Shown: positions 11,343 through 64,000, counted from the stretch's first letter. The stretch is DNA of 64,000 bases from Nitrospirota bacterium (GCA_963699545.1 CAVOUE010000011.1:11494-75493), one strand, 5' to 3'. Notes: a model not told the origin generated them from the sequence alone. Numbers and translations are program-made.

Positions 11343-11380
11343 ATCGTTCCGGCCCACGGCGAAGGAATGAATATCCGTGC

Positions 11381-11926
11381 CTATTCGCAGGATTCCTCCG
11401 TGCACTTGATCGACTCAAATGCAAGGAGTATCCTCTTTTCCTTCTCCATCCTTTCTGCAGGATACGGGCTGAAATCCGTCGAACGCATCATTTCGACAGC
11501 CTGCCGTCTGTCAGGCAGAGACTCCAACCCTTCTGCGATGACCTTTCCTTTCACGGTATCCAGTATCCGCGCATGGACGCCATCCGTGACTACGGCAATG
11601 GGGATCTGGTATGCATCCACAACCCGCGCAAAAGAGACAAGATGCCTCTCCCTGGATTCCACCGCCCCGGGAGAACATTTTATGACCATGAATCTCCTGC
11701 CTCCGACCTTGAGAATGTAATCAACCGATACCGGTGTCTGCCTGTTGTCCACGATGATCCCGAATTCCGCATCAACCTCAATGTCCTCGTCACCGTACCC
11801 CTTCTCCTGAATCACATAGTCCTTCACCATCCGTCTGATAAGGCCAAGACTTGTACGAGCTTCAGCCTCAGCGTTCCTGATCTTCTCTTCGACGAGTTTC
11901 TTGCGGTCGACGTTTTCCTGCACCAT
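11381..11926 (-). CDS. Stand-alone type I restriction HsdR N-terminal-like (PD-(D/E)xK) protein
   Basis: EKGY..DIEV..VDYIL..MVIKC..AVVTDG pattern typical of HSDR_N_2-like proteins. Confidence 0.55.
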   Translation of the reverse strand: MVQENVDRKKLVEEKIRNAEAEARTSLGLIRRMVKDYVIQEKGYGDEDIEVDAEFGIIVDNRQTPVSVDYILKVGGRRFMVIKCSPGAVESRERHLVSFARVVDAYQIPIAVVTDGVHARILDTVKGKVIAEGLESLPDRRQAVEMMRSTDFSPYPAERMEKEKRILLAFESIKCTEESCE

Positions 11927-49982: not shown

Positions 49983-50162
49983 ATGACCGAAGAACATGAA
50001 AAGCTGGTAAAGACCTCTGTGCATCTCGAAGAAGAGGTGCTGGAGGCGCTGGAAGAACTTGCCCGGGAATACTCAAAAGAGACCGGGCAGAGGTGGTCGA
50101 GGGGAGCGGTGATACGGGTTGCGCTGAGCGAGTTTTTCTCGCGCAGAGGAAAGATACTTTAA
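49983..50162 (+). CDS. Ribbon-helix-helix (CopG-like) protein, 59 aa (not in ORF track)
   Basis: MTEEHEKLVKTSVHLEEEVLEALEELAREYSKETGQRWSRGAVIRVALSEFF. Confidence 0.7.
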   Translation: MTEEHEKLVKTSVHLEEEVLEALEELAREYSKETGQRWSRGAVIRVALSEFFSRRGKIL

Positions 50163-50261
50163 CGGCCTTGTCTTTCTTGCACCTCCGGGGCTCCCTTCTT
50201 TTTCTGAAGAGAACCAGCAGTTGTGGGTCTGCCCGAAGACAGCTATAATAGGATCGATTCT

Positions 50262-50726
50262 ATGAATTCACCTGAAGAGAGATTGAAAGAACTGGGAATC
50301 CTTCTGCCGGCCGCACCCGCCGCACTGGGCGCCTATATTCCCTGTGTACAAGCAGGGAACCTCCTCTTCCTGAGCGGACAGCTCCCGCTCCGCGATGGAA
50401 AACTCGTTCATACGGGAAGGCTCGGTGAATCCGTCTCCGTCAGCGAAGCCCAGGAAGACGCCAGACAAACAGTGATGAATGCCCTGAGCAATGTCAAAGC
50501 ATTTCTCGGAGACCTGGCCAGAGTGGCACAGTGTGTGAAGCTCAGCGGCTATGTGGCCTCGGCATCCGACTTTACCGACCAGCCAAAGGTTCTGAATGCC
50601 GCCTCCGAACTCCTGCGCGATATCTTCGGTGATCGCGGGAAACATGCGAGGGTTGCCGTAGGGGTGCCTGTTCTTCCCTTGAACTCTCCCCTGGAGATCG
50701 ATTTTATCTTCGAGATAAAGGAATAA
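50262..50726 (+). CDS. RidA/YjgF family protein
   Basis: LFLSGQLP, NAASELL..FG..GKHARVAVGV..LP. Confidence 0.9.
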   Translation: MNSPEERLKELGILLPAAPAALGAYIPCVQAGNLLFLSGQLPLRDGKLVHTGRLGESVSVSEAQEDARQTVMNALSNVKAFLGDLARVAQCVKLSGYVASASDFTDQPKVLNAASELLRDIFGDRGKHARVAVGVPVLPLNSPLEIDFIFEIKE

Positions 50727-50758
50727 AAACTATCATCGGTCGATCCCCGGCACCGTTA

Positions 50759-51427
50759 TCATTTATTTTCAGAAGGCGGGGCCATGTGCCTGATTATCTT
50801 CCCTTCAACAAAGTAGATCACCATTTCAGCGATATTGGTGGCGTGGTCTGCGATGCGTTCCAGGTACTTTGAAATATAAGTGATCCTTGTTGCACGTGAC
50901 ACCGTATGCGGGTCCTGGATCATAAAGAAGAGCAGTTCATTGAAGACCTGAAGGTTGAGCTGATCGACCTCGTCATCCCTCTTTATCACATCCATCGCAA
51001 GCTTTGCATCTCCCCGGACAAGGGCATCAAGGGAGTCTTTCACCATTCCCCTTGCTATTTCAGCCATCCTTGGTATATCTATATACGGCTTCAGCATTGG
51101 CTCGTCGTTAAGCTCTATGGCCCTTTCCGCAATATCAACCGCAAGGTCTCCCATCCTTTCGATGTCCGTAGTGATCTTCATGGCGGTCGTGATGAACCGG
51201 AGGTCTCCCGCCTTTGGTTGTCTCAAAGCAATGAGCCGGATAGACTCCTCGTCTATCTCAACATCGAGTGTATTTATGAGATGGTCATTTTCAATGATCC
51301 TCTGCGCAAGGCCATTGTCCCTGTCCAAGAGGGCCTGTATGGAAGCCTTGATCGCATCTTCCACGAGGGACCCCATTTTGAGAAGTTTTCCCTTTAAATG
51401 CTGCAGTTCATCATCAAAGATTGACAT
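50759..51427 (-). CDS. phoU: Phosphate signalling protein PhoU
   Basis: ALRQPKAGDLR, DIERMGD, YLERIADHATNIAE. Confidence 0.96.
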   Translation of the reverse strand: MSIFDDELQHLKGKLLKMGSLVEDAIKASIQALLDRDNGLAQRIIENDHLINTLDVEIDEESIRLIALRQPKAGDLRFITTAMKITTDIERMGDLAVDIAERAIELNDEPMLKPYIDIPRMAEIARGMVKDSLDALVRGDAKLAMDVIKRDDEVDQLNLQVFNELLFFMIQDPHTVSRATRITYISKYLERIADHATNIAEMVIYFVEGKIIRHMAPPSENK

Positions 51428-52191
51428 TATCCAAACCTCCCCGTGATATATTCTTCAGTGAGCTTTTCAGAGGGGGTAGTAAAGATCTTGTCGGTCCTCC
51501 CAAATTCTACCAGCTCACCGAGCATCATGAAGCCTGTCCAATCAGATATCCTTGCCGCCTGCTGCATATTATGTGTGACGATGATAATACTCACACTGTT
51601 TTTTAGATCGACAATAAGCTCCTCAATCTTTGCCGTGGATATTGGGTCAAGGGCCGAAGTAGGCTCATCAAAGAGCAGGACTTCGGGTTCCACCGCCAGC
51701 GCCCTCGCAATGACAAGCCTCTGCTGCTGGCCACCGGAAAGTTCGTAGGCACTCATATTCAGCTTGTCCTTCACTTCATCCCAGAGCGCAGCATTCCTGA
51801 TCGCCTTTTCCACCTTCTCTGACAAATCTGCCCTCTTCTTGATCCCTTTCAATCTCAGGCCATATGCAATATTGTCGAATATGGTCATGGGAAAAGGGGT
51901 CGGCTTTTGGAACACCATGCCTATATTGCTCCGAAGACTTATCAGATCTGTGCCATTGGAAAGAATGTTCCTGTCCTGAAAAATGATTTCTCCCTCATAC
52001 CGGTTTCTGGGATACAGGTCATGCATCCTGTTAAAGCACCTGAGAAGTGTGGTCTTTCCGCAGCCTGAAGGACCAATCAGGGCCGTGACCGCACTTTTGT
52101 ATGCGTGCATGTTTATCTGTTTAAGCGCGTGAACATTCCCCGCATAGTAAAAGTTCAGATCCTTTATCTCGATTTCCTTCTTTTCTGTCAC
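51427..52191 (-). CDS. pstB: Phosphate ABC transporter ATPase
   Basis: [41 protein letters not shown]. Confidence 0.96.
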
Positions 52192-53030
52192 TATTTGTAC
52201 CTCCACTTTATTATAAGCCTCCCAAGGATAGTGATGGCAAGAACGACCAGGGTAATAATAAGAGATGCGGCCCATGCCTGTGCGTGCCAGTCATCATAGG
52301 GCCCCATGGCGTACTGGAATATGCTCGCCGTCAGAGAGGCCATGGACCTGTTCATATCTAGAGAGAAATACGCGTTATTGAATGATGTGAAGAGGAGCGG
52401 CGCGGTCTCCCCCGCAACCCTCGCAATGGAGAGCAGGATGCCTGTGAGAATACCGGTAGCAGCCCCCCGGTAGACTACCTGAATGATCACTTTGTAATAG
52501 GGAGCGCCCAATGCAAAAGCCGCCTCCCTCAAGGTCCAGGGGACAAGGGTGAGCATATCCTCCGTCGTTCTTAAGACCACAGGGATCATGATGATTGCGA
52601 GGGCAACTGAGCCGGCCCATCCGTTAAAGTGTCCTACCGGTCGCACCAATATCGCGTACACGAATGTTCCTATCACTATAGAGGGAACGCTCACCATGAT
52701 ATCCGCAAGAATGCTTATCACCCGCGATATCCTCGTTCCCCTTGCATATTCGGCAAGGAAGGTCCCCCCCAGAACTCCAATGGGTACCCCGATAAAAGTG
52801 GCAAAGAATGTTATCAGCAGCTGTCCCATGAAGGCGTTCCTTAATCCGCCGCCCGTAACGCCGGCAGGCGTGGGGTCATTCAGAAAAAGACTGATGTTCA
52901 ATGCGCCAATGCCGTGAATAAGGACGTCGCTCAGGATAAAGATGAGCCAGAACAATCCAAAACCTGCTGCAAGGGTGCTCAGGACAAGGGCCGTCAGGCT
53001 TTCGAGTTTCCTTTTCCTTTCCAGATTCAT
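52191..53030 (-). CDS. pstA: Phosphate ABC transporter permease PstA
   Basis: [31 protein letters not shown]. Confidence 0.95.
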
Positions 53031-53968
53031 CGAGAATATCTCCTCTCGGCCTTGAGGAGGAAAAACTTCGCGATGGCCAGAACAATAAAACTCAACACAA
53101 AGAGCACAAGGGCGAGATAAAAGAGGGAAGAGAGATACATATCAGTGTCTGCCTCGGTAAATTCATTGGCAAGGCTAACGGTGATTGTGGCAGCGGCCTG
53201 AAAAAGAGAGGTGGTTATCTGATGGTTATTCCCGAGGACAAAGGCCACAGCCATGGTCTCACCGAGCGCCCTTCCAAGGGAGAGGGCAATCCCCCCAAAA
53301 ACCCCCAGCTTCGAATAGGGGAGAATCACGTCCTTCACCACTTCCCATTGCGTGGTGCCGATGGCATAGGCAGATTCTTTTACCACTGCGGGAGTGAGAT
53401 TAAAGGCATCCCTGGAAATGCTCGCGGTAAAGGGGATAATCATGATGCTCAAAATAACGCTTGCAGTAAAGATATCTATCCCCATAGGTGTGCCCTGAAA
53501 TAAGATCCCGAGCAGGGGGAGTTTCCCCAGACTCTTCTGGAGCGCAGGCTCAATGTAGCGGGACATGAGCGGCGCAAGCGTAAAGAGGCCCCACATGCCA
53601 TAGATAATACTGGGTATAGCAGCAAGAAGTTCTATAGCAATCCCGATAGGGCCTTTCAGGAAATTGGGGGCTATCTCGGTGACGAATATGGCGATCCCGA
53701 TGGCGGTCGGCACCGCGATAATGAGGGCGAGAAGGGTCGTGATCACTGTTCCGTAAATTGTGGTTGCTGCGCCAAAGGATTCCTTCACCGGATTCCAGTC
53801 AGTAGAGGTGAGAAAATTAACAACTCCAAATTTGCTTACGGCAAGGGAAGACTCGCGCAGCAAGACCGCAAAAATCCCCATAACAAGAAGAATGACAGTC
53901 AATGATGCGAGAGCCGTAATCAGGGAAAAAGAGAAATCAACCGCATTTTTTTTATAGATTATGGGCAA
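53027..53968 (-). CDS. pstC: Phosphate ABC transporter permease PstC
   Basis: ELLAAIPSIIYGMWG, LGRALGETMAV. Confidence 0.95.
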   Translation of the reverse strand: MPIIYKKNAVDFSFSLITALASLTVILLVMGIFAVLLRESSLAVSKFGVVNFLTSTDWNPVKESFGAATTIYGTVITTLLALIIAVPTAIGIAIFVTEIAPNFLKGPIGIAIELLAAIPSIIYGMWGLFTLAPLMSRYIEPALQKSLGKLPLLGILFQGTPMGIDIFTASVILSIMIIPFTASISRDAFNLTPAVVKESAYAIGTTQWEVVKDVILPYSKLGVFGGIALSLGRALGETMAVAFVLGNNHQITTSLFQAAATITVSLANEFTEADTDMYLSSLFYLALVLFVLSFIVLAIAKFFLLKAERRYSR

Positions 53969-54049
53969 TTATATTGCTCCTTCCGTTGCCTTGTCAGTCA
54001 TTGCGCCGTTCTCCGCACACTCTTGCCTTAAGGTTGTATTGAAAGAGTG

Positions 54050-54088
54050 TTAAAGGGCCAGGTATATGATACAGACCTGGCCCTTTAA
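54050..54088. terminator. pstS-pstC intergenic stem-loop (partial terminator or mRNA stabiliser)
   Basis: TTAAAGGGCCAGGT / ACCTGGCCCTTTAA 14-bp perfect stem. Confidence 0.65.
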
Positions 54089-54112
54089 TTTCAAATTACC
54101 GTGAAGATAGAG

Positions 54113-55123
54113 CTAGTAAAGACCGTTCGCTTTCCAGTATGCCATGACCTTTTCTTTCAGCGACTTCGGCAGAGGCACGTAGATGAGTTCCTTGGCCTTA
54201 TTATCGCCGTTCTTGAACGCCCAGTCATAAAATTTTACGACCTTCATATTTGAATCCTTCTTCTCTTTTGCAAGGAGAATAAAGGTCGCTCCCGCAATGG
54301 GCCAGGCGTTCTTTCCGGGGGTGTTGTTCAGCCAGACATAAAAATCCTTCTTTGCATCGAAATCACCCGAGTCGGCTGCATCTTCGAAGGCCTCAAAACT
54401 GGGCGTCACAAAATTCCCAGCCTTATTCTTAAGCTGTGTATGTACCAGCTTATTCTGCTTTGCATAGGCAAATTCCACATACCCGACGGAGTTCGCGGTC
54501 TGCTTCACATAATTGGCAACCCCTTCGTTCCCCTTACCGCCAATCCCCGCAGGCCACTGAACAGACTTGCCTTCACCAACCTTGCTCTTGAAATCTGCAC
54601 ATGTTTCGCTCAGGTAATTGGTAAAGATTGCGGTCGTCCCTGACCCGTCCGACCTGTGGACCACGGTCATTTCATTGTGGGGCAACTTTACTTTTGGGTT
54701 GTTCTTCTTGAGCATCGCGTCATCCCAGAACTTGATCTCTCCGAGGTATATCTTGCAAAGCGTCTGCGGATCAAGCTTGAGTTCGCCCTCCTTCACCCCC
54801 TGGATGTTTACCACAGGAACGACTCCGCCAATCACCGCAGGGAACTGGATAAGTTTGTCGCCTGCGAGCTTATCGGGCTTCAAAGGGTCATCAGATGCGC
54901 CGAAGTCAACCGTCCTCTCGGTGATCTGCCTCTGCCCGCCGCCGGAACCTATGGACTGATAATTGAGTTTTACCCCTGTTGTCTTGTTATAATCGTATGC
55001 CCAGGCAGAATATACAGGATAGGGGAATGTTGCGCCCGCACCATTTATCGTTTCCTCAGCACCTGCCAAGGAAAATGACAAGGCTATCGCCAATACCACC
55101 ATTACGCCGAAAATATTCTTCAT
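54113..55123 (-). CDS. pstS: Phosphate ABC transporter substrate-binding protein
   Basis: GAGATFPYP, YQSIGSGGG, DFGASD, HRSDGSGTT, GKGNEGV. Confidence 0.97.
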   Translation of the reverse strand: MKNIFGVMVVLAIALSFSLAGAEETINGAGATFPYPVYSAWAYDYNKTTGVKLNYQSIGSGGGQRQITERTVDFGASDDPLKPDKLAGDKLIQFPAVIGGVVPVVNIQGVKEGELKLDPQTLCKIYLGEIKFWDDAMLKKNNPKVKLPHNEMTVVHRSDGSGTTAIFTNYLSETCADFKSKVGEGKSVQWPAGIGGKGNEGVANYVKQTANSVGYVEFAYAKQNKLVHTQLKNKAGNFVTPSFEAFEDAADSGDFDAKKDFYVWLNNTPGKNAWPIAGATFILLAKEKKDSNMKVVKFYDWAFKNGDNKAKELIYVPLPKSLKEKVMAYWKANGLY

Positions 55124-55176
55124 CCATCTCTCCTTTCTCGTATGCAATTGTTTCGTTATAATATAAAGCTCTGATT

Positions 55177-55215
55177 GTTACAATTGTGTTACAGTTCTAT
55201 TAAATTTCAGTTACA
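55177..55215 (-). promoter_or_regulatory. Pho box array of the pstS promoter
   Basis: GTTACA/ATTAAA units at 55177, 55188, 55199, 55210 (11-bp period); minus strand CTGTAAC-acaa-TTGTAAC then AT-rich -10. Confidence 0.8.
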
Positions 55216-55244
55216 GGGCTTAAATTAATCTTTCATTCTTTTCT

Positions 55245-55379
55245 TCACCTCCCTTTTTCTTTCTCACCAAAGACCCTTTGGATGAGGTGAAAAACAAAGA
55301 GATTCGGCCTGCCTCGGAGAAGGCTGATCACTGCAACTACAGAAAGAATCAGGCTTAGAACCAGTAAAACTACACTCAC
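55245..55379 (-). CDS. Putative 44-aa membrane micro-protein (GTG start, possibly leaderless)
   Basis: VSVVLLVLSLILSVVAVISLLRGRPNLFVFHLIQRVFGEKEKGR; starts just after a Pho-box promoter. Confidence 0.4.
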   Translation of the reverse strand: MSVVLLVLSLILSVVAVISLLRGRPNLFVFHLIQRVFGEKEKGR

Positions 55380-55401
55380 AAACTGAGAATATCAGAAGAT
55401 T

Positions 55402-55429
55402 GTTACAGCGATATTACGGAGGTGTTACA
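55402..55429 (-). promoter_or_regulatory. Pho-box-like promoter
   Basis: GTTACA 55402, ATTACG 55413, GTTACA 55424; -10 TATTCT on the minus strand. Confidence 0.65.
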
Positions 55430-55658
55430 TTTCAAGGTCATGCATATCTCTGCCTGAAAGACCGTGCATATTCGGGCAGAACGTCCGGCCCGAGGTGACG
55501 ATGATGAGCATGTTTTGAATCCTTTCTTTATCATGGGATATCACAACCGAACAGTCCATTGCCAGCCAGGAGAAACGTGCGCATACATCTTCAAGAACCG
55601 AGACGGACCCTGGCCGGATATTGGAAAGCATTGCGATATTCATCAGAACGGGATACAT
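55425..55658 (-). CDS. Hypothetical protein
   Basis: 77-aa ORF starting 1 nt after the stop of the upstream micro-protein; no recognisable motif. Confidence 0.3.
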   Translation of the reverse strand: MYPVLMNIAMLSNIRPGSVSVLEDVCARFSWLAMDCSVVISHDKERIQNMLIIVTSGRTFCPNMHGLSGRDMHDLEM

Positions 55659-55659
55659 T

Positions 55660-55851
55660 TCATGCGTACCCTTGCACCTGAACCTCGTCAGTTGTTTCTC
55701 TTTTTGCTCTGACGTCCTTCACCCGAAAGGGGCATTTCTTGTGGTCTTTCGTCAGGCAGTACTCCTCGAATTGGAAAACGCTCGGCACGTATACTCTCTC
55801 CCCGATCGTGCATGTTGCCACCACCCACCGATCCAAATGCGGGCATTTCAT
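55660..55851 (-). CDS. 4-Cys micro-protein, copy 1
   Basis: C-x10-C-x17-C-x7-CPF; ATGA coupling to the upstream gene. Confidence 0.75.
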   Translation of the reverse strand: MKCPHLDRWVVATCTIGERVYVPSVFQFEEYCLTKDHKKCPFRVKDVRAKRETTDEVQVQGYA

Positions 55852-56039
55852 GGCTTCCCCCATAGATTAACGAATGATTTCGGCCGCACGATATTCCGGA
55901 CCTCTGCCTGAGAGTTCCCCCATACGATGAGAGGACATTTCTCCTGTTTTCCCCTGCAAAAGAGGCTGCCGAACCGGGGAGTAACAGGGATACCCCTCAG
56001 ACACCTCAAGTCTTCAGATACATAATCACGACATGTCAT
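55848..56039 (-). CDS. 4-Cys micro-protein, copy 2 (shorter spacing)
   Basis: C-x9-C-x14-C-x6-CPL; SD AAGGAGG; ATGA coupling. Confidence 0.65.
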   Translation of the reverse strand: MTCRDYVSEDLRCLRGIPVTPRFGSLFCRGKQEKCPLIVWGNSQAEVRNIVRPKSFVNLWGKP

Positions 56040-56242
56040 TTCCGCCTCCTTCTTAAGGCTTTTGCCAGGAATATCGGGCAATAGTCATAGTCATCGGTGT
56101 TACAAAACTTCGTTCTCACCGTCGGCGTTGGTAATAATGAAGAAAGTGAGGCATTGCAGACATCGGATATATCCGAGTAGGGACAACGCAATTCAAGTTC
56201 ATGGGGCAGCTGTGCCGTCAGCGCCTTATCCATGCTGTTCAT
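56036..56242 (-). CDS. 4-Cys micro-protein, copy 3
   Basis: C-x8-C-x17-C-x7-CPIF; SD AAGGAGG. Confidence 0.75.
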   Translation of the reverse strand: MNSMDKALTAQLPHELELRCPYSDISDVCNASLSSLLPTPTVRTKFCNTDDYDYCPIFLAKALRRRRK

Positions 56243-56510
56243 TACAGCCTCCTTTATTGAATATGCTTTCTATCGTGACGCTGGATGCCATGTCCCTCAG
56301 ATAGGCGTCAATGTCTATCTGGCCGGGGTCGTACTTTATCAAGAGGCTTCCCGTTAAGGGGTTGGGGCGAATGTCCTCTATGCCGCACGGAACGGGAATG
56401 CCTGATAATCCTTTGAGAACACTTAAGGAAAGTCCCTTGATGGAGGGTACCTCAAGCCTGATGCGTCCTGGAACATGGTGTACTATCCTGTACTGAATCA
56501 TGGTGGTCAT
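56226..56510 (-). CDS. HMA2-like domain protein
   Basis: IVHHVPGRIRL..GIEDIRPNPLTGSLLIKYDP. Confidence 0.75.
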   Translation of the reverse strand: MTTMIQYRIVHHVPGRIRLEVPSIKGLSLSVLKGLSGIPVPCGIEDIRPNPLTGSLLIKYDPGQIDIDAYLRDMASSVTIESIFNKGGCNEQHG

Positions 56511-56559
56511 CCTCTGTCTGATTTCTTTGTCTGATCTTGCCATAGTAAACCACAGCACT

Positions 56560-56587
56560 GTTACGCACTTATGAAGACATCGTTACA
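56560..56587 (-). promoter_or_regulatory. Pho-box-like promoter
   Basis: GTTACG 56560, ATGAAG 56571, GTTACA 56582; -10 TACTAT. Confidence 0.6.
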
Positions 56588-56603
56588 TTTCAATGTAATC
56601 TGT

Positions 56604-57146
56604 TCAGACGATAACCACTGAGTCGTCGCATCCATACGGATTCTGTTCATACTTATCGGCACACCAATCATTCTCCCAGCGATCGCCATCAATGAGATAC
56701 CGGAACCTGTATTCTTTCCCTGCCGGCAGTTCAAGGGTTGCTTCGAAGTCGCCGCTTCTAAGCTTCTTCATCGGCGATGCTTCGCTATCCCATTTGTTGA
56801 AATCTCCTACAACCGTAACCTTTCTGGCCTGACCCACCGCATCTTTCGGCAGTCTGAACGTTATCCTGCAAGAGAGACTGGATGCCGGGTACTCCTCTTG
56901 AACGCCTCCGATTTCCTCCGTTGAATTTTTCCGGACCGTGAGCGGCCTCGCCGTCTCTTCTGCAGCCTGTCCCTTTCCTGCTCCCTCTTGCGTACCGTGC
57001 CTCTCCGTCACTTCAGCGCGAGAACTCAGTTTAGATGTCTTGGCCTTCATGGGCGCTTTCGATCCTTTCTTCGCCGTCTTCTCACCAGGGACCACAGACT
57101 CCGGTGCTTTCTTCCTTACTGCTCCTTTGGATTCTCTCATCGTCAT
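56604..57146 (-). CDS. CBM48 (isoamylase early set / glycogen-binding) protein with Lys-rich N-terminus
   Basis: VTVVGDFNKWD..M..F.ATLEL..EYRFRYLIDGDRWENDWCAD. Confidence 0.82.
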   Translation of the reverse strand: MTMRESKGAVRKKAPESVVPGEKTAKKGSKAPMKAKTSKLSSRAEVTERHGTQEGAGKGQAAEETARPLTVRKNSTEEIGGVQEEYPASSLSCRITFRLPKDAVGQARKVTVVGDFNKWDSEASPMKKLRSGDFEATLELPAGKEYRFRYLIDGDRWENDWCADKYEQNPYGCDDSVVIV

Positions 57147-57183
57147 ATCACTCCCTCCTCAAGCATTCTTTCTCCTTCCCCTA

Positions 57184-57438
57184 TCATTTTGGACCGGGAA
57201 ACGAGTTAACAAACCTGATCGTGAAATCACTGAACGCGTCGACCATCTGGATTCTGTAGTCCGGAAACTCATCCACAACCTGCCAAAGACCCTGGCCATT
57301 CGGCAAGGACGCTACTTCCTGCACGTCCAAATCCGCCATCGAATCGACTACTTCCACACGGTAATGAGGGAACCTGTCCACATACTGAATCCTGCCATAC
57401 ACTTTGCTTAGATCAGGTTTCCCCACTGTGCTGGTCAT
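57184..57438 (-). CDS. Small 11-residue repeat protein
   Basis: Six V(D/N/A)xxxD-type repeats (IQYVDRFPH, VEVVDSMAD, WQVVDEFPD, IQMVDAFSD, IRFVNSFPG); SD AAGGAG. Confidence 0.75.
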   Translation of the reverse strand: MTSTVGKPDLSKVYGRIQYVDRFPHYRVEVVDSMADLDVQEVASLPNGQGLWQVVDEFPDYRIQMVDAFSDFTIRFVNSFPGPK

Positions 57439-57513
57439 CTCCTTAATCTCATCACACCTTTTGGTCCGATGATAACGCCCGCCTTGACCGCTCCTACCAC
57501 CTTTCCAGCCCCT

Positions 57514-58020
57514 TTATCTGCCGCAATGCATATAGTCGCTGTCCTTCCTTGAATTGTGACAGGCTATGCATGCATCAGCCTTGCCTGATTCCAGCACATA
57601 CCCGGAATTGGCAGCATACTTGGCCCAAAACCAGTCGCCGGCCTCAGGGTTATACCCCTTTATCTTGTACATCACGGTGCAGGAGTCAAGTTTTTTGTCT
57701 GCCGTATAATTCTCACTGACGATTATTGAACCATCCGCCATTCCCTCCGGTTTCTTGATTGATTTTAAGGCTGCATCGTTCAGATAGATGGTCATGAACG
57801 AGCCGTGAGGTCTTTCACTCGCCAGGAACTCGCCTGTTCCCGGGCAACGGTTCCACTTCTCATAATAGGGCGCCGGCTTGGTTATATATACGTAGAGTTT
57901 TCCAGCGTCATCACCTGAGACAACGGGTGCAGTTCCCCCCAATTCATGAATAGCATATGCGACATATCCACAACCAAGCACGACACCCACAACAAGAACC
58001 GCCATTACTAATTTCCTCAT
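57514..58020 (-). CDS. Cytochrome P460-family c-type cytochrome
   Basis: Signal peptide, PHG..IYLN, DGSIIVSENY, VMYK..GYNPEAGDWFWAKY, C-terminal CIACH. Confidence 0.82.
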   Translation of the reverse strand: MRKLVMAVLVVGVVLGCGYVAYAIHELGGTAPVVSGDDAGKLYVYITKPAPYYEKWNRCPGTGEFLASERPHGSFMTIYLNDAALKSIKKPEGMADGSIIVSENYTADKKLDSCTVMYKIKGYNPEAGDWFWAKYAANSGYVLESGKADACIACHNSRKDSDYMHCGR

Positions 58021-58103
58021 GGTTATCTCCCTTCCTGCTGAGTATTTCAGCCGCTCATGCCGGTAAAAGGCTGGTGACTGTAGTTTCATTTTAGCGTTCA
58101 ATT

Positions 58104-58153
58104 GTTACAGGAATATGTTCGAACTATTAAAGGAGCGTTAAATTGTGGTCAAA
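58104..58153 (-). promoter_or_regulatory. Pho-box-like promoter
   Basis: GTTACA 58104, ATTAAA 58126, GTTAAA 58137, GTCAAA 58148 in 11-bp phase; -10 TAAAAT 10 nt after the last box. Confidence 0.65.
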
Positions 58154-58249
58154 ATCATCGATCCCGAGATGGTCAACACTTCCGGAAGCCTTTGGGACTC
58201 AAGTGTTGCGGATCCCACCGGGCCTGAGTAACTGAAGGGTGAAACCCCG

Positions 58250-58996
58250 TCAGACGAGATGTGCTGAAAGCCACGATGCGACCTGCCGGTAGTCTTCCGC
58301 GCCATTCGACCTTGGAGCAAAAAGTATCACCGGCTTTCCACGTCCGGGAGCTTCTGTCAGCGCCACATTCTCACGCACTGCAGGAGAAACTTTATGAGGG
58401 AAGAGCTTTTCCAGTTGTTCCATCATTGCCTGATGGACATTGCGTCTGGGATGAGCCCGGCACGGTATTACTGCGCCCAGCTTGAGGCCAGGATGATGCC
58501 TCCCCACTGATGATATTGTCTCCAGCATTTGAGTAAGACCGCTCATCGCCAGGAAGCTCGCTTCAACCGGAATGATCACATGATTGCTCGCCCACAGGGC
58601 AGTCATGGTGAGGATCCCCAGGCTGGGAGGACAATCGATGATCACTCTACTCCAGTCAAAACCATGCATCTGTTTCAGGCAACGGAGCAGCAGTTCATTT
58701 CCTATTGTTCCCGTAAATCTCTGTCTCGCAGCCACAAAGTGAGGCCCGGACGGAACCAGATCCACACCATTGGCCTCAGTGTGCAGCACAGGCAATGCAA
58801 CTGTCTTTTGCAACGCCTGTAAGAGGTCATTCCCATCACTCTGGATACCAAAAGACATGCTCGCACTGCCCTGAGGATCGAGATCGACAAGAAGGACCTT
58901 TTCCCCTGCCTCTCCCCAGCATGCAGCAATATTCACCGCCGATGTTGTCTTCCCGACACCGCCCTTGAGGTTTGCAACCGAGATTATCTGGACCAA
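58250..58996 (-). CDS. Orphan ParA/Soj-family ATPase
   Basis: NLKGGVGKTT, VDLDPQG, IDCPPSLG, RENVALTEAP; no parB nearby. Confidence 0.88.
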   Translation of the reverse strand: MVQIISVANLKGGVGKTTSAVNIAACWGEAGEKVLLVDLDPQGSASMSFGIQSDGNDLLQALQKTVALPVLHTEANGVDLVPSGPHFVAARQRFTGTIGNELLLRCLKQMHGFDWSRVIIDCPPSLGILTMTALWASNHVIIPVEASFLAMSGLTQMLETISSVGRHHPGLKLGAVIPCRAHPRRNVHQAMMEQLEKLFPHKVSPAVRENVALTEAPGRGKPVILFAPRSNGAEDYRQVASWLSAHLV

Positions 58997-59211
58997 TACG
59001 CGCCCTTCCTTATCGAATCCCTTACATTGCGGCTGACGAGGACGACCAGGTAATCTTTGATCCTGGCTCCTTCCCTGATGGCGCAATAGAAGGTCTCATA
59101 AACGCTTCTTATCTCCTCCTCCGGCATGCCAAGGTCCTTCGCAAGCATCCGGATAGCTTGAGAATGTTGCCTCAGTTCCGTATCATTTTCGTATGGACAC
59201 GCAGTTGCCAT
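58984..59211 (-). CDS. Small helical protein, DUF3562-like
   Basis: AI..LA..G....V.......L..GARIKDYL.VL..R pattern; SD GAGG. Confidence 0.6.
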   Translation of the reverse strand: MATACPYENDTELRQHSQAIRMLAKDLGMPEEEIRSVYETFYCAIREGARIKDYLVVLVSRNVRDSIRKGAYWSR

Positions 59212-59536
59212 GATTTCCTCGTGCCTTTTTTACCGTTCTCCTCTTTGGGCATAAGAGTTCTCTTTTCCCATGCTTCTCACCAGGCCCTGTCGGTTGCCTC
59301 GATTCAAGTGTATCATCAAAAGCAGGAGCACGCGCCTTTTTTTTCATTACTTGCCTATAGTTTTATGCGATGTGCCGCCACTCCGAACAGACGGGGAACA
59401 TAGCAGCGGAATATGCCAGGAATGGTATATGATCAGAATATATCTATGGACAGATCGTGGTGGATATGGATCCTTCTCCCACAAAGGTCACTTATGCTGC
59501 GGACATTCGACAGGGAGCATTCATACGGATATCTCT

Positions 59537-59704
59537 CTATCCCAAAAGTCGCCTGTCCCTCACAATGCACGATCTTCTGCACAATGCCGCCTCTTTCTTG
59601 GCCTGCTTTTTCAGCTCCGTGGCAACTGCATTAATCCCTATGACCGTGAAAAGTATACGGGCAACAATGAGTATTGCTTTCTTCTTAAGGTTCATCTTGA
59701 ACAT
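59537..59704 (-). CDS. Putative 55-aa micro-protein with hydrophobic segment (not in ORF track)
   Basis: MFKMNLKKKAILIVARILFTVIGINAVATELKKQAKKEAALCRRSCIVRDRRLLG. Confidence 0.4.
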   Translation of the reverse strand: MFKMNLKKKAILIVARILFTVIGINAVATELKKQAKKEAALCRRSCIVRDRRLLG

Positions 59705-59730
59705 GCCACGTTACCTTAATGAGGGTCCTG

Positions 59731-59898
59731 TCAAGTCTTTGGGAACTCTTTCTGGTAACAGCTCATGCAACTCTCATCATTCGAGGGAATGCACTTGTGC
59801 CCTCTGTAACAATGACAGAATGCCTTCTTGTTATTGATGCGTTTGAAAACCCACATTTCATATCGCTTTTGCTGTTCTGTTAAGGCTTTGAGTGCCAT
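59731..59898 (-). CDS. 55-aa Cys-rich micro-protein (not in ORF track)
   Basis: MALKALTEQQKRYEMWVFKRINNKKAFCHCYRGHKCIPSNDESCMSCYQKEFPKT; SD GGAGG; Pho-like promoter upstream. Confidence 0.65.
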   Translation of the reverse strand: MALKALTEQQKRYEMWVFKRINNKKAFCHCYRGHKCIPSNDESCMSCYQKEFPKT

Positions 59899-59948
59899 TT
59901 CTTTCGCCTCCGTTTACGATGTACTGGTTTCCAGTGTATATCAGGGAC

Positions 59949-59988
59949 GTTGCAACGTAATGAAGATACCTGTTAAGAGTCTGTGAAA
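59949..59988 (-). promoter_or_regulatory. Pho-box-like promoter (degenerate)
   Basis: GTTGCA 59949, ATGAAG 59960, GTTAAG 59972, GTGAAA 59983; -10 TACACT 10 nt after the last box. Confidence 0.5.
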
Positions 59989-60065
59989 TATAGAGCCAAA
60001 AAAAAGGATAAGACATAAAAGATTATAACGGGAGAGATAGGAGGAGGAAGCCGCCAGACTCCCCG

Positions 60066-60437
60066 CTATATCAGGAGTGTGATCAATGACAGCGCCGACC
60101 CTTCGAGTGCGCTCTCCACAAAGGTCCCGAAGATTGCCTTTCCGATGAGGCTGCCTGCCCGCGAAGCGGCCGTCTGGATATACTGGTCATTTGTCAGCGC
60201 TTTTGAAGTGTCAAAGTACCCTTTTCTCTGGAGAGTATTGACAATATCCTTGTCGTCCGCAGTCTTGGGGTTGTAGTTGATAAGTATACTCCCGGTCGTG
60301 AGATTTATGTCCACCGTTGCGATGCCATGTATTGTGCTCAAGATCTTTCTGATCTCATCCGCAACTTCTTTATTCCTCTTGACAACAGGGGTTTTCACCC
60401 TTAGCCTTCCCGGCACATTGTGGACGTAATAACTCAT
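60066..60437 (-). CDS. HMA2-like domain protein
   Basis: YVHNVPGRLRVK..GIATVDINLTTGSILINYNP. Confidence 0.8.
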   Translation of the reverse strand: MSYYVHNVPGRLRVKTPVVKRNKEVADEIRKILSTIHGIATVDINLTTGSILINYNPKTADDKDIVNTLQRKGYFDTSKALTNDQYIQTAASRAGSLIGKAIFGTFVESALEGSALSLITLLI

Positions 60438-60438
60438 G

Positions 60439-60765
60439 TTATTCCTCCTTCATTACGTATTTCTTAAATGTCCTGCATGCCGGATAGCCCGAGCATCGGA
60501 AACGGATGATGTAACCTTCTATCTTATAGAGGTTCATGGGCTTCCCGCATTGCGGACAGACCGGCTTGTCTTTCACGGTAGCCCTCTTGGGACTTCCCGT
60601 AAATTGCATGCCGCACATCATGCAGAGAAACCTTTGCTTTCCTGCCCCTGTCCTTCCATACTTATAGGCAGCATCAGAACCGCAGGAAGGACATTTGATC
60701 TCCGCATCTGTAATTACCGTTTGCGTCATCAATCCGTTCTCGTGACCCAAAGAGTGTTCAGTCAC
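60439..60765 (-). CDS. Double zinc-ribbon protein (IS1 InsA-like ribbon plus topoisomerase-type C4 finger)
   Basis: CPSCGS..YKYGRT..GKQRFLCMMCG then CPQCGKPM..RCSGYPACR. Confidence 0.75.
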   Translation of the reverse strand: MTEHSLGHENGLMTQTVITDAEIKCPSCGSDAAYKYGRTGAGKQRFLCMMCGMQFTGSPKRATVKDKPVCPQCGKPMNLYKIEGYIIRFRCSGYPACRTFKKYVMKEE

Positions 60766-60789
60766 GCCTCATAAGAGAGACTGAGCATT

Positions 60790-61005
60790 CTAAAGTGTCC
60801 CTAAGACAGAATCAGGGCCTGATATCGAGAGGGCCACGGTTCGCAGTAAGCGCACATAATATGAACATGCCTCATGGTGCCTGCCCATACAGAGCCGTAT
60901 GTCCGCATCTTCCATGAACCGGACGAACGTGCTGGCCACGCTGCACTGAGCCCCCTCAGGACTTCCCTTGAGAAATTGACAGACCGCTCCACTCTTCAGG
61001 TGCAT
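60790..61005 (-). CDS. 4-Cys micro-protein, copy 4
   Basis: C-x11-C-x17-C-x7-CSYY; SD AGGAG. Confidence 0.72.
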   Translation of the reverse strand: MHLKSGAVCQFLKGSPEGAQCSVASTFVRFMEDADIRLCMGRHHEACSYYVRLLRTVALSISGPDSVLGTL

Positions 61006-61037
61006 GTTTATTCTCCTGAATGAAGCATACACCTGTT

Positions 61038-61090
61038 CCGTTACAGTTTTGTTACAACCATGTTAAATGTTTGTAACAAAACTGTAACGG
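61038..61090. promoter_or_regulatory. Pho boxes arranged as a perfect 20-bp inverted repeat
   Basis: CCGTTACAGTTTTGTTACAA / TTGTAACAAAACTGTAACGG; -10 TATGCT 10 nt downstream on the minus strand. Confidence 0.75.
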
Positions 61091-61154
61091 CGGCCCACGA
61101 TGCTTTTGGGCCGCCTCAGGATGTTTCTAACGGAGCCGGTAATGCGCGGCTAAC

Positions 61155-61322
61155 CTATACAACTCCTTCAAAGGCAATGCCGGCCGAGACGAAGAATTGG
61201 GCGATAAAGACCGGACATTTCTCCCATTCTCCCCGTTGGCAGGTCCTCTTGTCCGCACAGTGTATTCTGTCCGGCTCGATCCCAGCGAAGTCACAGATCT
61301 GATCCTTCAAACTTGGACACAT
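61155..61322 (-). CDS. 4-Cys micro-protein, copy 5
   Basis: C-x7-C-x17-C-x7-CPVF (one extra Cys within x17); SD AAGGAGGT. Confidence 0.75.
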   Translation of the reverse strand: MCPSLKDQICDFAGIEPDRIHCADKRTCQRGEWEKCPVFIAQFFVSAGIAFEGVV

Positions 61323-61395
61323 TTCGTTACCTCCTTTCAAAAGAGGAATTTATCCTTCCGCCTTCCTCATGTTCAATCAGTGCCCAGCAGCCAAT

Positions 61396-61776
61396 TCAAA
61401 CCTCCAGGTACCGTGCAACCTTTTTTCTCAAATCAAAAATATCTCCCTTGGCGATGTACCCCTTGACACCGTGTTCAGCCACGGCCCGCCGCAGACTGTC
61501 CTCATCGTTGGATGAATAGAAGACGATGGGGATGTCCCTGGTTTTTCCGTTCGAAAGGAGCACTTTCGAAAGCCTTCCCCCCGAGAGGCCGGGCATGTTC
61601 ATATCAAGCAAAATAAGGTCCGGCTGCACCTCTCTCACCACATTGGTGACCCCGAAGCCGAAATGATGCATGCGCACTTCATATCCCATCTCCTCCAGGA
61701 GATCCTTCGCGGTGAGAAGATGTTTCATGTCGTCATCCACAACGAGTATCATTTTCTTCTCTCTCTTGCGTTCCAT
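61396..61776 (-). CDS. Single-domain response regulator (receiver only)
   Basis: ILVVDDD, PDLILLDMNMPG, YSS, YIAK. Confidence 0.9.
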   Translation of the reverse strand: MERKREKKMILVVDDDMKHLLTAKDLLEEMGYEVRMHHFGFGVTNVVREVQPDLILLDMNMPGLSGGRLSKVLLSNGKTRDIPIVFYSSNDEDSLRRAVAEHGVKGYIAKGDIFDLRKKVARYLEV

Positions 61777-61781
61777 GCTGT

Positions 61782-62963
61782 TTATCTTCCTTTTGTCGTA
61801 TGCTCCACCGGTAAAAAGACCGAGAACTTCGTTCCCTCGCCGAACGTGCTCGAGACAGTAATCTCACCTCCCAAGATGCGCAGCAGGTTCTGGGTGATGG
61901 TCAATCCGAGCCCCGTCCCTTCATGCCTTTTGGTCATTGTGTCCTCCAGCTGGCTGAAGGCGAGGAACAATTTGTCCATCTCGTTTTCCCTTATTCCCGC
62001 ACCCGTGTCGGTCACCTCAATCTTGACCCTTTTCCCTTCGCTGCCGAGAGATATGACAATCTTGCCCCTTTCGGTAAATTTCGCTGCGTTGCTCATGAGG
62101 TTGGTCAATATCTGTCGCACCTTAACGGGATCGGACACCATGAATACAGGCTCAATATGCGAGACCACCTCTACATTCACAGGCTTGTTTCCAACGAGGA
62201 CACGGGTCGTCTCACCCACTTCATTGAGGATCGTCAATACATTGAACCGCTCGACGATGACCTCCATCTTGCCCGCTTCGATCTTTGAAAGATCGAGAAT
62301 GTTCGTGACGATGGCCCTGAGGTTGGTCGCGCTGGACATGAGGAGCGCGAGGCGGTCTTTCAGCTGCTCCATGTATCCCTTTTCTGATGACAGTTGTATA
62401 AGCTCTGCCAATCCTATAATGGCGTTCACAGGGGATCTGAGTTCATGGGTGACATGCGCAATAAACTGGGACTTCATCTGGCTCATCCTCTCGAGCTCTT
62501 TCGCTTTCGCATGGACCACTTCCTTCTGAATAATACTGTTCGCGAGCACGCTGCTTTGCTGTATGACCATCTGCTTCACCGAAAGAAGGCCGGTATATGC
62601 GCCGGAGTCTTTCACCACGATGATGTCATCATAAATATCCTGCGGAGCTCGCTCCAGTGCCTTGTCTATGGCCACGTCGAGTCTTTCATCCTCGTGCATC
62701 ACCAGCGGGGCGGTATCAGCTATGCTGATGATCGGCTTCCTCCCGTAAAGCTCAAATCCGTACCTCCTTAATACGGTGAAGAAGAACTTCGGTCTGGTCA
62801 CGATTCCCACGGGGCTTTGACCTTCGAGGAGCGCAATGGCATCGAGTTCCGTAGACCTGAAGAACCTGTCTACCACCTCTTTGACGAGGATATCCGGCTG
62901 CAGGCTCTCGCGTGATGTAATGAGTTCCCCCACTCGGGGCGATTCGACGCAAAGGGAATCCAT
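61782..62963 (-). CDS. Cytoplasmic histidine kinase with N-terminal tandem CBS domains
   Basis: CBS-like PVGIVTR / YDDIIVV..YTGLLSV; THELRSP, NAAKFT, DTGAGI, GTGLGL; no TM segment. Confidence 0.85.
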   Translation of the reverse strand: MDSLCVESPRVGELITSRESLQPDILVKEVVDRFFRSTELDAIALLEGQSPVGIVTRPKFFFTVLRRYGFELYGRKPIISIADTAPLVMHEDERLDVAIDKALERAPQDIYDDIIVVKDSGAYTGLLSVKQMVIQQSSVLANSIIQKEVVHAKAKELERMSQMKSQFIAHVTHELRSPVNAIIGLAELIQLSSEKGYMEQLKDRLALLMSSATNLRAIVTNILDLSKIEAGKMEVIVERFNVLTILNEVGETTRVLVGNKPVNVEVVSHIEPVFMVSDPVKVRQILTNLMSNAAKFTERGKIVISLGSEGKRVKIEVTDTGAGIRENEMDKLFLAFSQLEDTMTKRHEGTGLGLTITQNLLRILGGEITVSSTFGEGTKFSVFLPVEHTTKGR

Positions 62964-62977
62964 TGCTAGTCTTCCTT

Positions 62978-63154
62978 TCAGACAATCCGGCATGCGGCGG
63001 TCTCAGGTGCATTGCCGTTGAATTCAGTAATCTTGTTCAAATACTCGCTACTCATTTTGATCTCTTCCACAATGTGGATATCACTCAGATCGCCTTCTTT
63101 CCCGTAGATGCGGATGACGTACGCATCATCAGATACATCAATAATCGCTTTCAT
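62978..63154 (-). CDS. 58-aa hypothetical protein (not in ORF track)
   Basis: MKAIIDVSDDAYVIRIYGKEGDLSDIHIVEEIK...; SD AAGGAGGT; first gene after a Pho-like promoter. Confidence 0.65.
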   Translation of the reverse strand: MKAIIDVSDDAYVIRIYGKEGDLSDIHIVEEIKMSSEYLNKITEFNGNAPETAACRIV

Positions 63155-63216
63155 CGCGGTTACCTCCTTGTCTTGCCTTTGAAATATCTTTCTGTCTGGT
63201 ACTGTAGCCGGAAAAT

Positions 63217-63244
63217 GTTACATGGTTATGAAAGCGAGGTTACG
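63217..63244 (-). promoter_or_regulatory. Pho-box-like promoter
   Basis: GTTACA 63217, ATGAAA 63228, GTTACG 63239; -10 TACAGT 10 nt after the last box. Confidence 0.65.
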
Positions 63245-63369
63245 TTTTGACCGTACCTTGTCCTTTCAAGCTCGTTACTCTCTTTTCCCGGAGCACCTGA
63301 CGGTCTTCGTTTCCTAGCAGTTGCCATATGCATCTTTTCACTGAGGGAAGAAATTGAAATTAACGGACA

Positions 63370-63413
63370 AATAATCTCACTGTAATATCAGTGTAATAAT
63401 TCTGTGGTACAAC
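63370..63413 (+). promoter_or_regulatory. Pho-box-like promoter of dedA
   Basis: TGTAAT at 63381 and 63392 (11-bp period), TACAAC 10 nt later. Confidence 0.6.
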
Positions 63414-63419
63414 CTTTTC

Positions 63420-64000
63420 ATGACGGAGTTGTTGCACATGGGCGGACAGTTCCCCTATCTTGGGCTTTTCATGGCCCTCATCTTAGGGAGTGTAGGATTC
63501 CCTTTTCCAGAGGATGCGATCCTCATGTGGTGCGGGTTTCTTATCTCCAGAAATACGGTCGAGCCCTTGCCGGCGCTGCTGGTGGTCTATGCCGGGGTTG
63601 TGACAAGCGATTTCATAATCTTTTCAATCGGCAGGAGATATGGCCGATCGATTTTAAGTCACAGAAGACTGCACCGTGTACTCTCGCCCGAAACTCTCGC
63701 CGTCGTTGAGATCAAATTCAAAAAGCACGGGATGCTTCTTGTTTTGCTGGGCAGACAGATCTTCTGGGTCAGGGCCAAGATATTCCTTGTTGCAGGAATA
63801 ATGAGGATGCCTGCCCGTACGTTCCTGATAGTTGATGCTATTTCCGCCATATTTTCCGTTGCAATAATGGTTGCAGTAGGAAACATCGGAACAGGATGGC
63901 TCTCCTCTCTTAAGAGTTTCGGCGTGCAGCGATGGTATGTCATCGCATCGGCCGTGGCCGTCCCTGCGCTTGTCTTCGTTCTTTTCCGGCATCTGAACGC
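63420..64000 (+). CDS. DedA-family membrane protein (runs off the window)
   Basis: Manual translation GFPFPEDAIL..G..SDFIIFSIGRRYG..LLGRQI..R..FLVAGIMRM..F...D. Confidence 0.85.
   Translation, partial: MTELLHMGGQFPYLGLFMALILGSVGFPFPEDAILMWCGFLISRNTVEPLPALLVVYAGVVTSDFIIFSIGRRYGRSILSHRRLHRVLSPETLAVVEIKFKKHGMLLVLLGRQIFWVRAKIFLVAGIMRMPARTFLIVDAISAIFSVAIMVAVGNIGTGWLSSLKSFGVQRWYVIASAVAVPALVFVLFRHLN

Follow-up and report, generated by a model that had tools for sequence, protein, structure and literature searches.

Candidate PhoB-type promoters across an island of small genes beside pstS in a Nitrospirota bacterium

Which signal governs the small genes that accompany the phosphate transporter operon in a Nitrospirota genome? 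We addressed this question in a 64,000-nucleotide (nt) stretch of DNA, hereafter the window, which corresponds to contig C11:11494-75493 of the Nitrospirota bacterium assembly GCA_963699545.1 (here G000; 3.04 Mb, 13 contigs, 52% G+C). From 50.7 kb to the contig end, nearly all genes lie on the minus strand, with phoU, pstB, pstA, pstC and pstS followed by an island of about 20 mostly small genes. An initial annotation of the window had proposed eight Pho-box-like promoters in this region. By our sequence-based analysis, seven of the eight are very likely bound by the phosphate-starvation regulator PhoB. We consider it likely that these seven arrays are lineage-specific PhoB Pho boxes of the Thermodesulfovibrionales and, because seven such promoters would drive its operons, that the island is a lineage-specific extension of the Pho regulon.

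Direct-repeat arrays before pstS and the island operons

Seven sites (A, B, C, D, F, G and H) share one plan once the eight are aligned on the unit nearest the gene. Each consists of three to four units of 11 nt, with the gene-strand core cTGTAAC(A) as the last unit and a weaker middle unit, TT(A/C)ATA; in order towards the gene, the units are approximately AAT(T/G)TAAC, TT(A/C)ATA and CTGTAACA. Site coordinates given here refer to a 33-nt block, and the offset is the distance from the end of that block to the start of the -10 hexamer. Across the seven sites a TAnnnT-like hexamer starts 7–9 nt past the block, equivalent to about 10 nt past the last heptamer, with site H deviating in sequence. 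We scored every site in three ways: with a 33-nt matrix built from the eight window sites A–H, with the same matrix after leaving out the site in question, and with a matrix built only from relatives, using 91 distinct sites of at least 20 bits in their loci. The genome background under the eight-site matrix is -33.5 ± 10.0 bits.

Site A (55174-55206, minus strand), before pstS, has four units reaching to 55217 and a -10 element TATATT at 55160-55165 (offset 8); its three scores, in the order above, are 36.2, 26.1 and 37.8 bits. Site B (55399-55431, minus), with three units and TATTCT at 55386-55391 (offset 7), scores 38.6, 30.8 and 39.4 bits and lies 225 nt further upstream than site A. Three units also make up site C (56557-56589, minus; TACTAT at 56542-56547, offset 9; 30.9, 16.5 and 28.0 bits), site F (61037-61069, minus; TATGCT at 61024-61029, offset 7; 32.7, 21.4 and 30.3 bits) and site G (63214-63246, minus; TACAGT at 63201-63206, offset 7; 35.3, 25.0 and 36.1 bits). 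Site D (58101-58133, minus, with units to 58144) precedes a cytochrome P460-like gene, has TAAAAT at 58088-58093 (offset 7) and scores 30.8, 16.2 and 20.6 bits. On the plus strand, site H (63368-63400) stands before a DedA/VTT gene at an offset of 7 from the hexamer TACAAC at 63408-63413, and scores 33.3, 21.0 and 21.1 bits.

Site F forms one arm of a near-perfect palindrome at 61038-61090, with 24-nt arms that are 96% complementary and a 5-nt loop. Inverted partner matches are also present in two relatives, G004 and G035. A plus-strand promoter arising from the inverted units at 61070-61090 was considered and rejected, as no -10 element follows them. Adjoining the palindrome is a 9-bp GC-rich hairpin at 61089-61115, which on the minus strand looks like a terminator of the neighbouring operon G.

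The arrangement is far from what chance would produce. In the whole genome, same-strand GTTAC pairs occur 8 times at a spacing of 11, 4 times at 22 and 4 times at 33, with 0–5 pairs at each of the other spacings from 4 to 60. Half of these 16 pairs fall in 55174-63214, about 9 kb of 3.04 Mb, and two more lie at C3:814201 and C3:814451, in a second island described below. The eight-site matrix gave the same picture: 17 genome positions reached at least 20 bits, against 2, 0, 1, 1 and 0 in five block shuffles; 11 reached at least 25 bits, against 0, 0, 1, 0 and 0; and 8 reached at least 30 bits, against none. A chance origin of the array pattern is excluded. A further match, at C13:6689-6721 and overlapping a peptidase C39 gene at its start, reached 19.4 bits under the first matrix; it did not recur with the relatives-only matrix and was discarded.

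Much of the initial annotation held. Its TGTAAC-like repeats of 11-nt period lie where it had placed them, with seven sharing the plan of three to four units; the arrays do point towards the adjacent genes, each oriented with its gene and with a phased -10; and the repeat period, the -10 offset and the presence and conservation at pstS each agree with the PhoB-type architecture it had named. The motif is not equally common elsewhere in the genome, given that 8 of the 16 exact GTTAC pairs are found in these 9 kb. Its remark that there was no obvious -35 element is borne out by a sigma-70 scan of 54900-63600, which returned 6 paired -35/-10 sites against 9.6 ± 3.6 in shuffles and hence no excess; only one of the six is on the minus strand, that of the island genes, and it overlaps site D. 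Two of its claims require trimming. The count of eight promoters falls to seven, as site E is degenerate and fails two scorings. The TAnnnT element about 10 nt after the last unit is found at six sites, at offsets of 7–9, whereas site H has TACAAC and the TATACA of site E is misplaced.

The motif in relatives and among known Pho boxes

For comparison we assembled the pstS loci of 40 relatives from 13 families of Thermodesulfovibrionales, of which 28 loci served for tests upstream of pstS. In a matrix-free count of the 150 nt upstream of pstS, TGTAAC was the top 6-mer, with 44 copies in 21 of the 28 loci against 0.3 expected from coding sequences; GTAACA was second. Pairs of the core [GT]TAA[CT] in these regions are spaced at 11 (52 pairs), 22 (33) or 33 nt (15), with at most 2 at any other spacing up to 40. 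With the first matrix, the gene strand within 400 nt upstream of pstS held a site of at least 20 bits in 21 of the 28 loci and of at least 19 bits in 23. Three of the five loci below 19 bits are extra pstS-like copies in G003 and G015, genomes in which the other copy is boxed.

The position of the sites is conserved as well. In relatives, the counterpart of site A is kept 33–52 nt before pstS, and six of them carry a box like site B 265–291 nt before the gene. Of the 91 sites from relatives, 49 have the start of TAnnnT at offset 7, 20 have it at offset 8 and 9 at offset 9, with 0–8 at each remaining offset. Sites upstream of orthologues stay conserved across genera while the spacer that flanks them diverges.

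Several published Pho boxes offer a comparison. In Escherichia coli, Pho boxes built from the heptamer CTGTCAT (PMC1906773, PMC4415409) lie 10 bp upstream of a TAN3T/A -10 element (PMC1906773); as described there, the arrays here are alike in having 11-nt direct repeats on the gene strand, about 10 nt to a TAnnnT -10, no -35 and a box at pstS. They differ in their core, cTGTAAC(A) against CTGTCAT, and in having three to four unequal units with a weak middle one, against a pair of like units. For PhoB of Desulfovibrio vulgaris (DVU1083), DNA affinity purification on chip (DAP-chip) gave the box (c/t)GT(n)AC, a 6-bp repeat with a 4-bp spacer, and pstS among the targets (PMC3333781). This box fits the (C/T)GTAAC core found here and, as that source presents it, belongs to an anaerobic sulfate-reducer lineage in which pstS is targeted. 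D. vulgaris is a member of another phylum, and no counterpart of the island genes was noted in the text of that paper among its PhoB targets. The Pho boxes of Synechocystis SphR are reported as at least three tandem 8-bp repeats, CTTAACCT (PMC1906773), and on that description resemble the arrays in the number of tandem units (three or more), in the 8+3 period and in a TTAAC-like core similar to the distal unit here. The proximal unit here is of GTAAC type, and Synechocystis is an unrelated organism. Among open-access papers and preprints, we found no published Pho-box description for Thermodesulfovibrionales. The PhoP boxes of Bacillus subtilis are TTAACA-like hexamers with a period of about 11 bp; a literature search for a TTAACA-type Pho box found nothing.

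Candidate regulators and competing explanations

To what regulator would these arrays belong? Outside the window, the predicted targets point to phosphate. Across the G000 assembly the relatives-only matrix returned 21 local maxima of at least 12 bits, 15 of them of at least 20 bits. These 15 strong sites comprise the seven of the window (A, B, C, D, F, G and H), five at C3:803-815 kb, two on C10 and one at C3:590 kb. The first C10 site lies between a PhoR/PnpS-like kinase gene and a PhoB-like regulator gene. The second precedes a four-gene operon for a PHP-type phosphoesterase, an HpnI-like glycosyltransferase and two OlsF-like acyltransferase halves, with a PhoH2-like gene downstream of the operon; phosphorus-free lipid synthesis by OlsF is described as a known response to phosphate limitation, under which OlsF matters for growth (PMC5193443). 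One of the five sites on C3 precedes a Metallophos phosphoesterase gene. The isolated site at C3:590 kb (L003, that is C3:586000-593000, 4194-4226, minus strand) scores 26.4 bits with the relatives-only matrix, has its -10 at offset 7, and precedes three open reading frames (ORFs) of 72–78 amino acids (aa) and two larger ones, none of which matches a Pfam family.

The assembly yielded just four Trans_reg_C genes, of which two are PhoB-like, another is of CopR type and the last lies at C3:276811-277035. The two PhoB-like regulators lie on C10 on either side of a PhoR-like kinase, in the order regulator, kinase, second regulator (L002 7419-10686), and are 76% identical with near-identical C-terminal domains. 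For the C10 regulator, the best solved relative is RegX3, the phosphate-responsive regulator of mycobacteria. Of 40 relatives, 9 have a PhoB-like gene no more than 25 kb from pstS on one contig, and in one of these it stands directly upstream. The regulator-kinase-regulator layout is also present in G001, G011 and G013, and in the C10 row a Pho box occurs only before the downstream PhoB-like copy. Within the window, the one response regulator of the OmpR family is of CopR/CusR type (10665-11405), beside a CusS-type kinase, the pair spanning 9320-11405 on the minus strand.

Assignment of the arrays to PhoB is thus well supported by the motif at pstS, the genes that the strong sites precede, the small number of candidate regulators and the agreement with published boxes. 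The route from signal to gene would run as follows. Under phosphate limitation, the PhoR-like kinase on C10 would phosphorylate one of its two PhoB-like neighbours, or both. Phosphorylated PhoB would then bind head-to-tail on the three to four 11-nt direct repeats. As at the pho promoters of E. coli, and by analogy with the family, the array may stand in for the -35 element, with bound PhoB recruiting the sigma-70 polymerase. The predicted targets in the window are pstSCAB-phoU (site A), the gene for a 44-aa membrane protein (site B), operons C, D, F and G, and the DedA gene (site H).

Several observations weigh against this assignment. The best NCBIfam match of the C10 regulator is PhoB (TIGR02154), yet at 279.3 bits it falls below the cut-off of 296.2, and the kinase likewise stays below the cut-offs for PhoR (285.4 bits against 334.2) and PnpS (379 against 400). 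In line with the initial annotation, which placed a PhoB or PhoP orthologue outside the window, PhoB-like regulators and a PhoR-like kinase are encoded on C10, at scores under the NCBIfam cut-offs. The only OmpR-family regulator in the window itself is the CopR/CusR-type one. The names given to the genes of the C10 lipid operon are also best matches below NCBIfam cut-offs. Predicted autoregulation of phoB is not conserved: of 27 relatives, just 3 show a box of at least 20 bits before their PhoB-like match. At site H, the hexamer TACAAC ends in C and does not read TAnnnT. Site E (59946-59978, minus strand) is rejected as a Pho box and promoter: its units are degenerate, TATACA lies at the wrong distance, and its 18.7 bits fall to -3.9 when it is left out of the matrix and to below 12 with the relatives-only matrix, where it is not among the 21 maxima. 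Orthologues of site E score 9.7 and 5.5 bits. In the 325-nt gap at 59212-59536, upstream of the DUF3562 and ParA-like genes, the best score is -1.8 bits. The matrix analyses are partly circular, with the first matrix trained on window sites, and the test with the relatives-only matrix is not fully independent, because its 91 sites were picked with the window-trained matrix; the GTTAC pair counts and the matrix-free k-mer test upstream of pstS are free of this circularity. Lastly, the assembly is 87% complete, and the list of regulon members is therefore partial.

One alternative is that the arrays are operators of another OmpR-family regulator, either that at C3:276811-277035 or the CopR-like one, which would couple pstS and the island to some different signal, such as a metal, in place of phosphate. 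In its favour, direct repeats with this period occur throughout the OmpR family, the PhoB-like genes score short of the NCBIfam equivalog cut-off, and the island is rich in putative metal-binding proteins (HMA_2, Cys4 and zinc-ribbon). Such a regulator would sit poorly with the dominance of the motif before pstS across the order, and with its presence before a PhoB-like gene, the OlsF-like lipid operon and two phosphoesterase genes, all typical phosphate-starvation functions. The core also resembles the D. vulgaris PhoB box (c/t)GT(n)AC as published (PMC3333781), and CopR/CusR is the best-scoring type for the window's own regulator. We therefore regard control by another family member as unlikely.

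A different question is the direction of control, as PhoB could bind these arrays and act mainly as a repressor, or in a dual role, at some island promoters, in which case the genes would be off under starvation. The palindrome at site F, with its units running both ways across the start region of operon F, would suit such a role, as would the inverted partner matches in G004 and G035 and the poor -10 at site H. Yet the arrays occupy the position known for activation by PhoB, standing where a -35 would be, with a -10 at fixed offset in most of the 91 sites, and pstS, with the same layout, is described as an activated gene wherever it has been studied (PMC1906773, PMC4415409). A mainly repressing or dual role at some of these promoters is thus very unlikely. 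Least of all do we favour the idea that the repeats are non-regulatory, being chance matches in AT-rich spacers or remnants of repeated or mobile elements. Site E and a few matches of 12–19 bits do resemble chance or decayed copies, but the 17 positions of at least 20 bits against 0–2 in shuffles, the orientation of the sites with their genes, the phased -10 and the conservation upstream of orthologues across genera while the spacer diverges make this explanation extremely improbable. Activation by PhoB remains our preferred account of the seven arrays.

Gene content of the island and its possible role

The first predicted target, pstS-pstC-pstA-pstB-phoU (50759-55123, minus strand; site A), was delineated from ORFs with tblastn orthologues that are 71–81% identical in relatives; its gene names come from synteny and from reading the translations, these five genes lying outside the Pfam scan. 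Between sites B and A, upstream of pstS, is the gene for a hydrophobic small protein of 44 aa (55245-55379, minus). Its GTG start is only 6 nt past the -10 of site B, and its mRNA is therefore probably leaderless. The protein is conserved in 4 of 7 aligned genomes (the window, G001, G009 and G017), with 61% identity by tblastn in G001. A small RNA between the two sites was considered and dropped after alignment showed this conserved ORF, and Rfam at gathering thresholds gave no match in 54900-64000. A look-up of sequencing runs, RNA or DNA, for 54100-63500 returned none.

Operon C (55425-56501, minus strand), behind site C, begins with a CoBaHMA/HMA_2 protein (56226-56501; 33 bits for Pfam HMA_2, where the cut-off is 30). 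Three small proteins with four invariant cysteines (Cys4) follow, at 56036-56242, at 55848-56039 (or 55848-56081, with overlap into both neighbouring genes) and at 55660-55863, and then a 77-aa ORF (55425-55658). G001 and G003 keep the gene order, and both, like G035, have a box in front of the orthologous operon. Operon D (56604-58020, minus), behind site D, encodes the cytochrome P460-like protein identified by Pfam (57514-58020), an 84-aa protein without a family match, in which a short aromatic/acidic motif is repeated three times internally (57184-57438), and a 180-aa protein with a CBM48/AMPK1_CBM domain in Pfam (56604-57146). Its intergenic gaps of 37 and 75 nt hold no box, and in G007 the P460 orthologue has a box of 20.0 bits 125 nt upstream.

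Operon F (60066-61032, minus strand), behind site F, consists of genes for a Cys4 protein (60790-61005/61032), a double zinc-ribbon protein assigned by Pfam (60439-60765) and a 123-aa CoBaHMA/HMA_2 protein with a hydrophobic, Gly-rich tail (60066-60437; Pfam HMA_2 at 53.9 bits against 30). Operon G (61155-63154, minus), behind site G, comprises a 58-aa ORF (62978-63154), a histidine kinase (61782-62993) and a receiver-only response regulator (61396-61776), both identified by Pfam, and a Cys4 protein (61155-61322/61340). Its order is kept in G001, where the kinase and the regulator are each 81% identical, and in G001 and G004 the orthologous 58-aa gene follows a box. The short gaps within the boxed island operons contain no box. 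The DedA/VTT gene behind site H (Pfam VTT_dom, plus strand) starts with an ATG at 63420 and is cut by the contig end; its mRNA may be leaderless, because the -10 at 63408-63413 is so near the start codon.

Four minus-strand genes lack a convincing box and are for that reason not placed in the regulon: two 55-aa ORFs (59731-59898 and 59537-59704), a DUF3562 protein (58984-59211) and a ParA-like ATPase (58250-58996), the last two identified by Pfam. The ParA and DUF3562 orthologues in relatives have no boxes either, and a literature search for DUF3562 found nothing. The initial annotation had most of the roughly 20 small genes under common control; as a prediction, this stands for operons C, D, F and G and the 44-aa protein, all of which have boxes, and is withdrawn for these four.

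The boxed genes recur as two modules. One, in the order box-HMA_2-Cys4-Cys4-Cys4, box-small membrane protein and box-pstS, is found in G001 and G003, with parts of it in G011 and G035. The other, box-58-aa ORF-kinase-receiver-Cys4 followed by box-Cys4-zinc ribbon-HMA_2, is present whole or in part in G001, G003, G004, G007, G009, G011 and G035 and in the second G000 island at C3:812-815 kb. The operon F module with its box also occurs in four named metagenome-assembled genome records. Boxes of 20–26 bits stand before the HMA_2 gene and before a receiver/kinase pair even in two records, one labelled Deltaproteobacteria, with only 46% identity in the HMA_2 protein. Judged by the matrix, the modules keep their predicted boxes across genera and down to 46% protein identity.

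The second Pho-box island (L001, C3:800000-818000) holds paralogues of the window island genes, some of them broken. A P2-type ATPase with an N-terminal HMA_2 domain (L001 5429-8514) is split into three ORFs. An HMA_2 paralogue (L001 13520-13865) lies in two frames, and another ORF (L001 3237-3587) joins an HMA_2 N-terminus to a Cys4 protein. These three cases may reflect gene decay or faulty assembly.

In alignment, the window's five small Cys proteins form a single superfamily that shares four invariant cysteines, roughly CP.L-x7-C ... YC-x7-CP. A profile search against 1.84 billion representatives returned 510 proteins at E ≤ 1e-3 and 25 at ≤ 1e-10, and nearly all of the 150 matches listed are 52–124 aa long. 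Pfam and NCBIfam gave no match for the small proteins tested or for ten representatives of the Cys4 family, and the ten Cys4 clusters looked up are all 'hypothetical protein' or nameless. In a protein atlas, the Cys4 protein led only to unnamed Nitrospirota clusters, and the 123-aa protein to HMA_2 clusters. The predicted structure of the Cys4 protein at 55663-55863 had a mean predicted local distance difference test score (pLDDT) of 57.9 with a 31-row alignment and 60.0 with a 130-row alignment, too low for a fold search.

HMA_2 (PF19991) has six matches in G000, five of them above the cut-off of 30. In the relevant preprints, Pfam HMA_2 is described as the CoBaHMA domain, known from calcyanin and bearing a basic signature (bioRxiv 10.1101/2024.07.07.602159), and CoBaHMA as related through an R-rich motif to the ferrosome proteins FezB and FezC (bioRxiv 10.1101/2020.01.10.902569); ferrosomes are reported to store iron phosphate (10.64898/2026.06.16.732667). 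As in the calcyanin and ferrosome systems, two island proteins match HMA_2 above cut-off, and both translations have a PGRxR motif and further Lys/Arg near the N-terminus, the PGRxR resembling the Fez R-rich motif and the CoBaHMA basic signature as these sources give them. The island has no calcyanin and no FezB-type P1B-6 ATPase; 50000-64000 contains no P-type ATPase, a statement that does not cover FezB signature motifs, which were not searched. The only HMA_2-domain ATPase in the genome matches Cation_ATPase_N and Cation_ATPase_C and is P2-type by Pfam. By its predicted gene content, the island is not a fez cluster.

We nonetheless note one speculative role. The two Pho-box islands might encode an apparatus, induced by phosphate starvation, that acts on an intracellular mineral or membrane-bound inclusion, for example by mobilising a metal-phosphate store, an idea we hold to be unlikely. 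Its parts would be the CoBaHMA, Cys4 and zinc-ribbon proteins, the P-type ATPase with a CoBaHMA domain and the nested kinase/receiver pair. With no P1B ATPase, and with the sole HMA_2 ATPase P2-type and broken, such inclusion handling is therefore only a lead. If true, the direct link to PhoB would tie CoBaHMA inclusions to phosphorus economy in Nitrospirota and beyond.

Independently of that idea, the conserved cluster of small genes beside the phosphate transporter probably belongs to the phosphate-starvation response, as far as promoter sequences and gene order indicate. A Pho-box consensus for Thermodesulfovibrionales is now available as a testable motif. Twelve of the 15 strong sites lie in the two islands, and most of the predicted PhoB targets here are not the textbook ones: they include the Cys4 family, with some 500 sequence clusters, CoBaHMA proteins, a zinc-ribbon protein and a second two-component system. 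For several families without known function, the association of gene and box gives a first functional clue, phosphate starvation. Pho boxes are ordinary in themselves; the value of those predicted here is that they would tie an unusual, conserved and uncharacterised set of genes to phosphate starvation.

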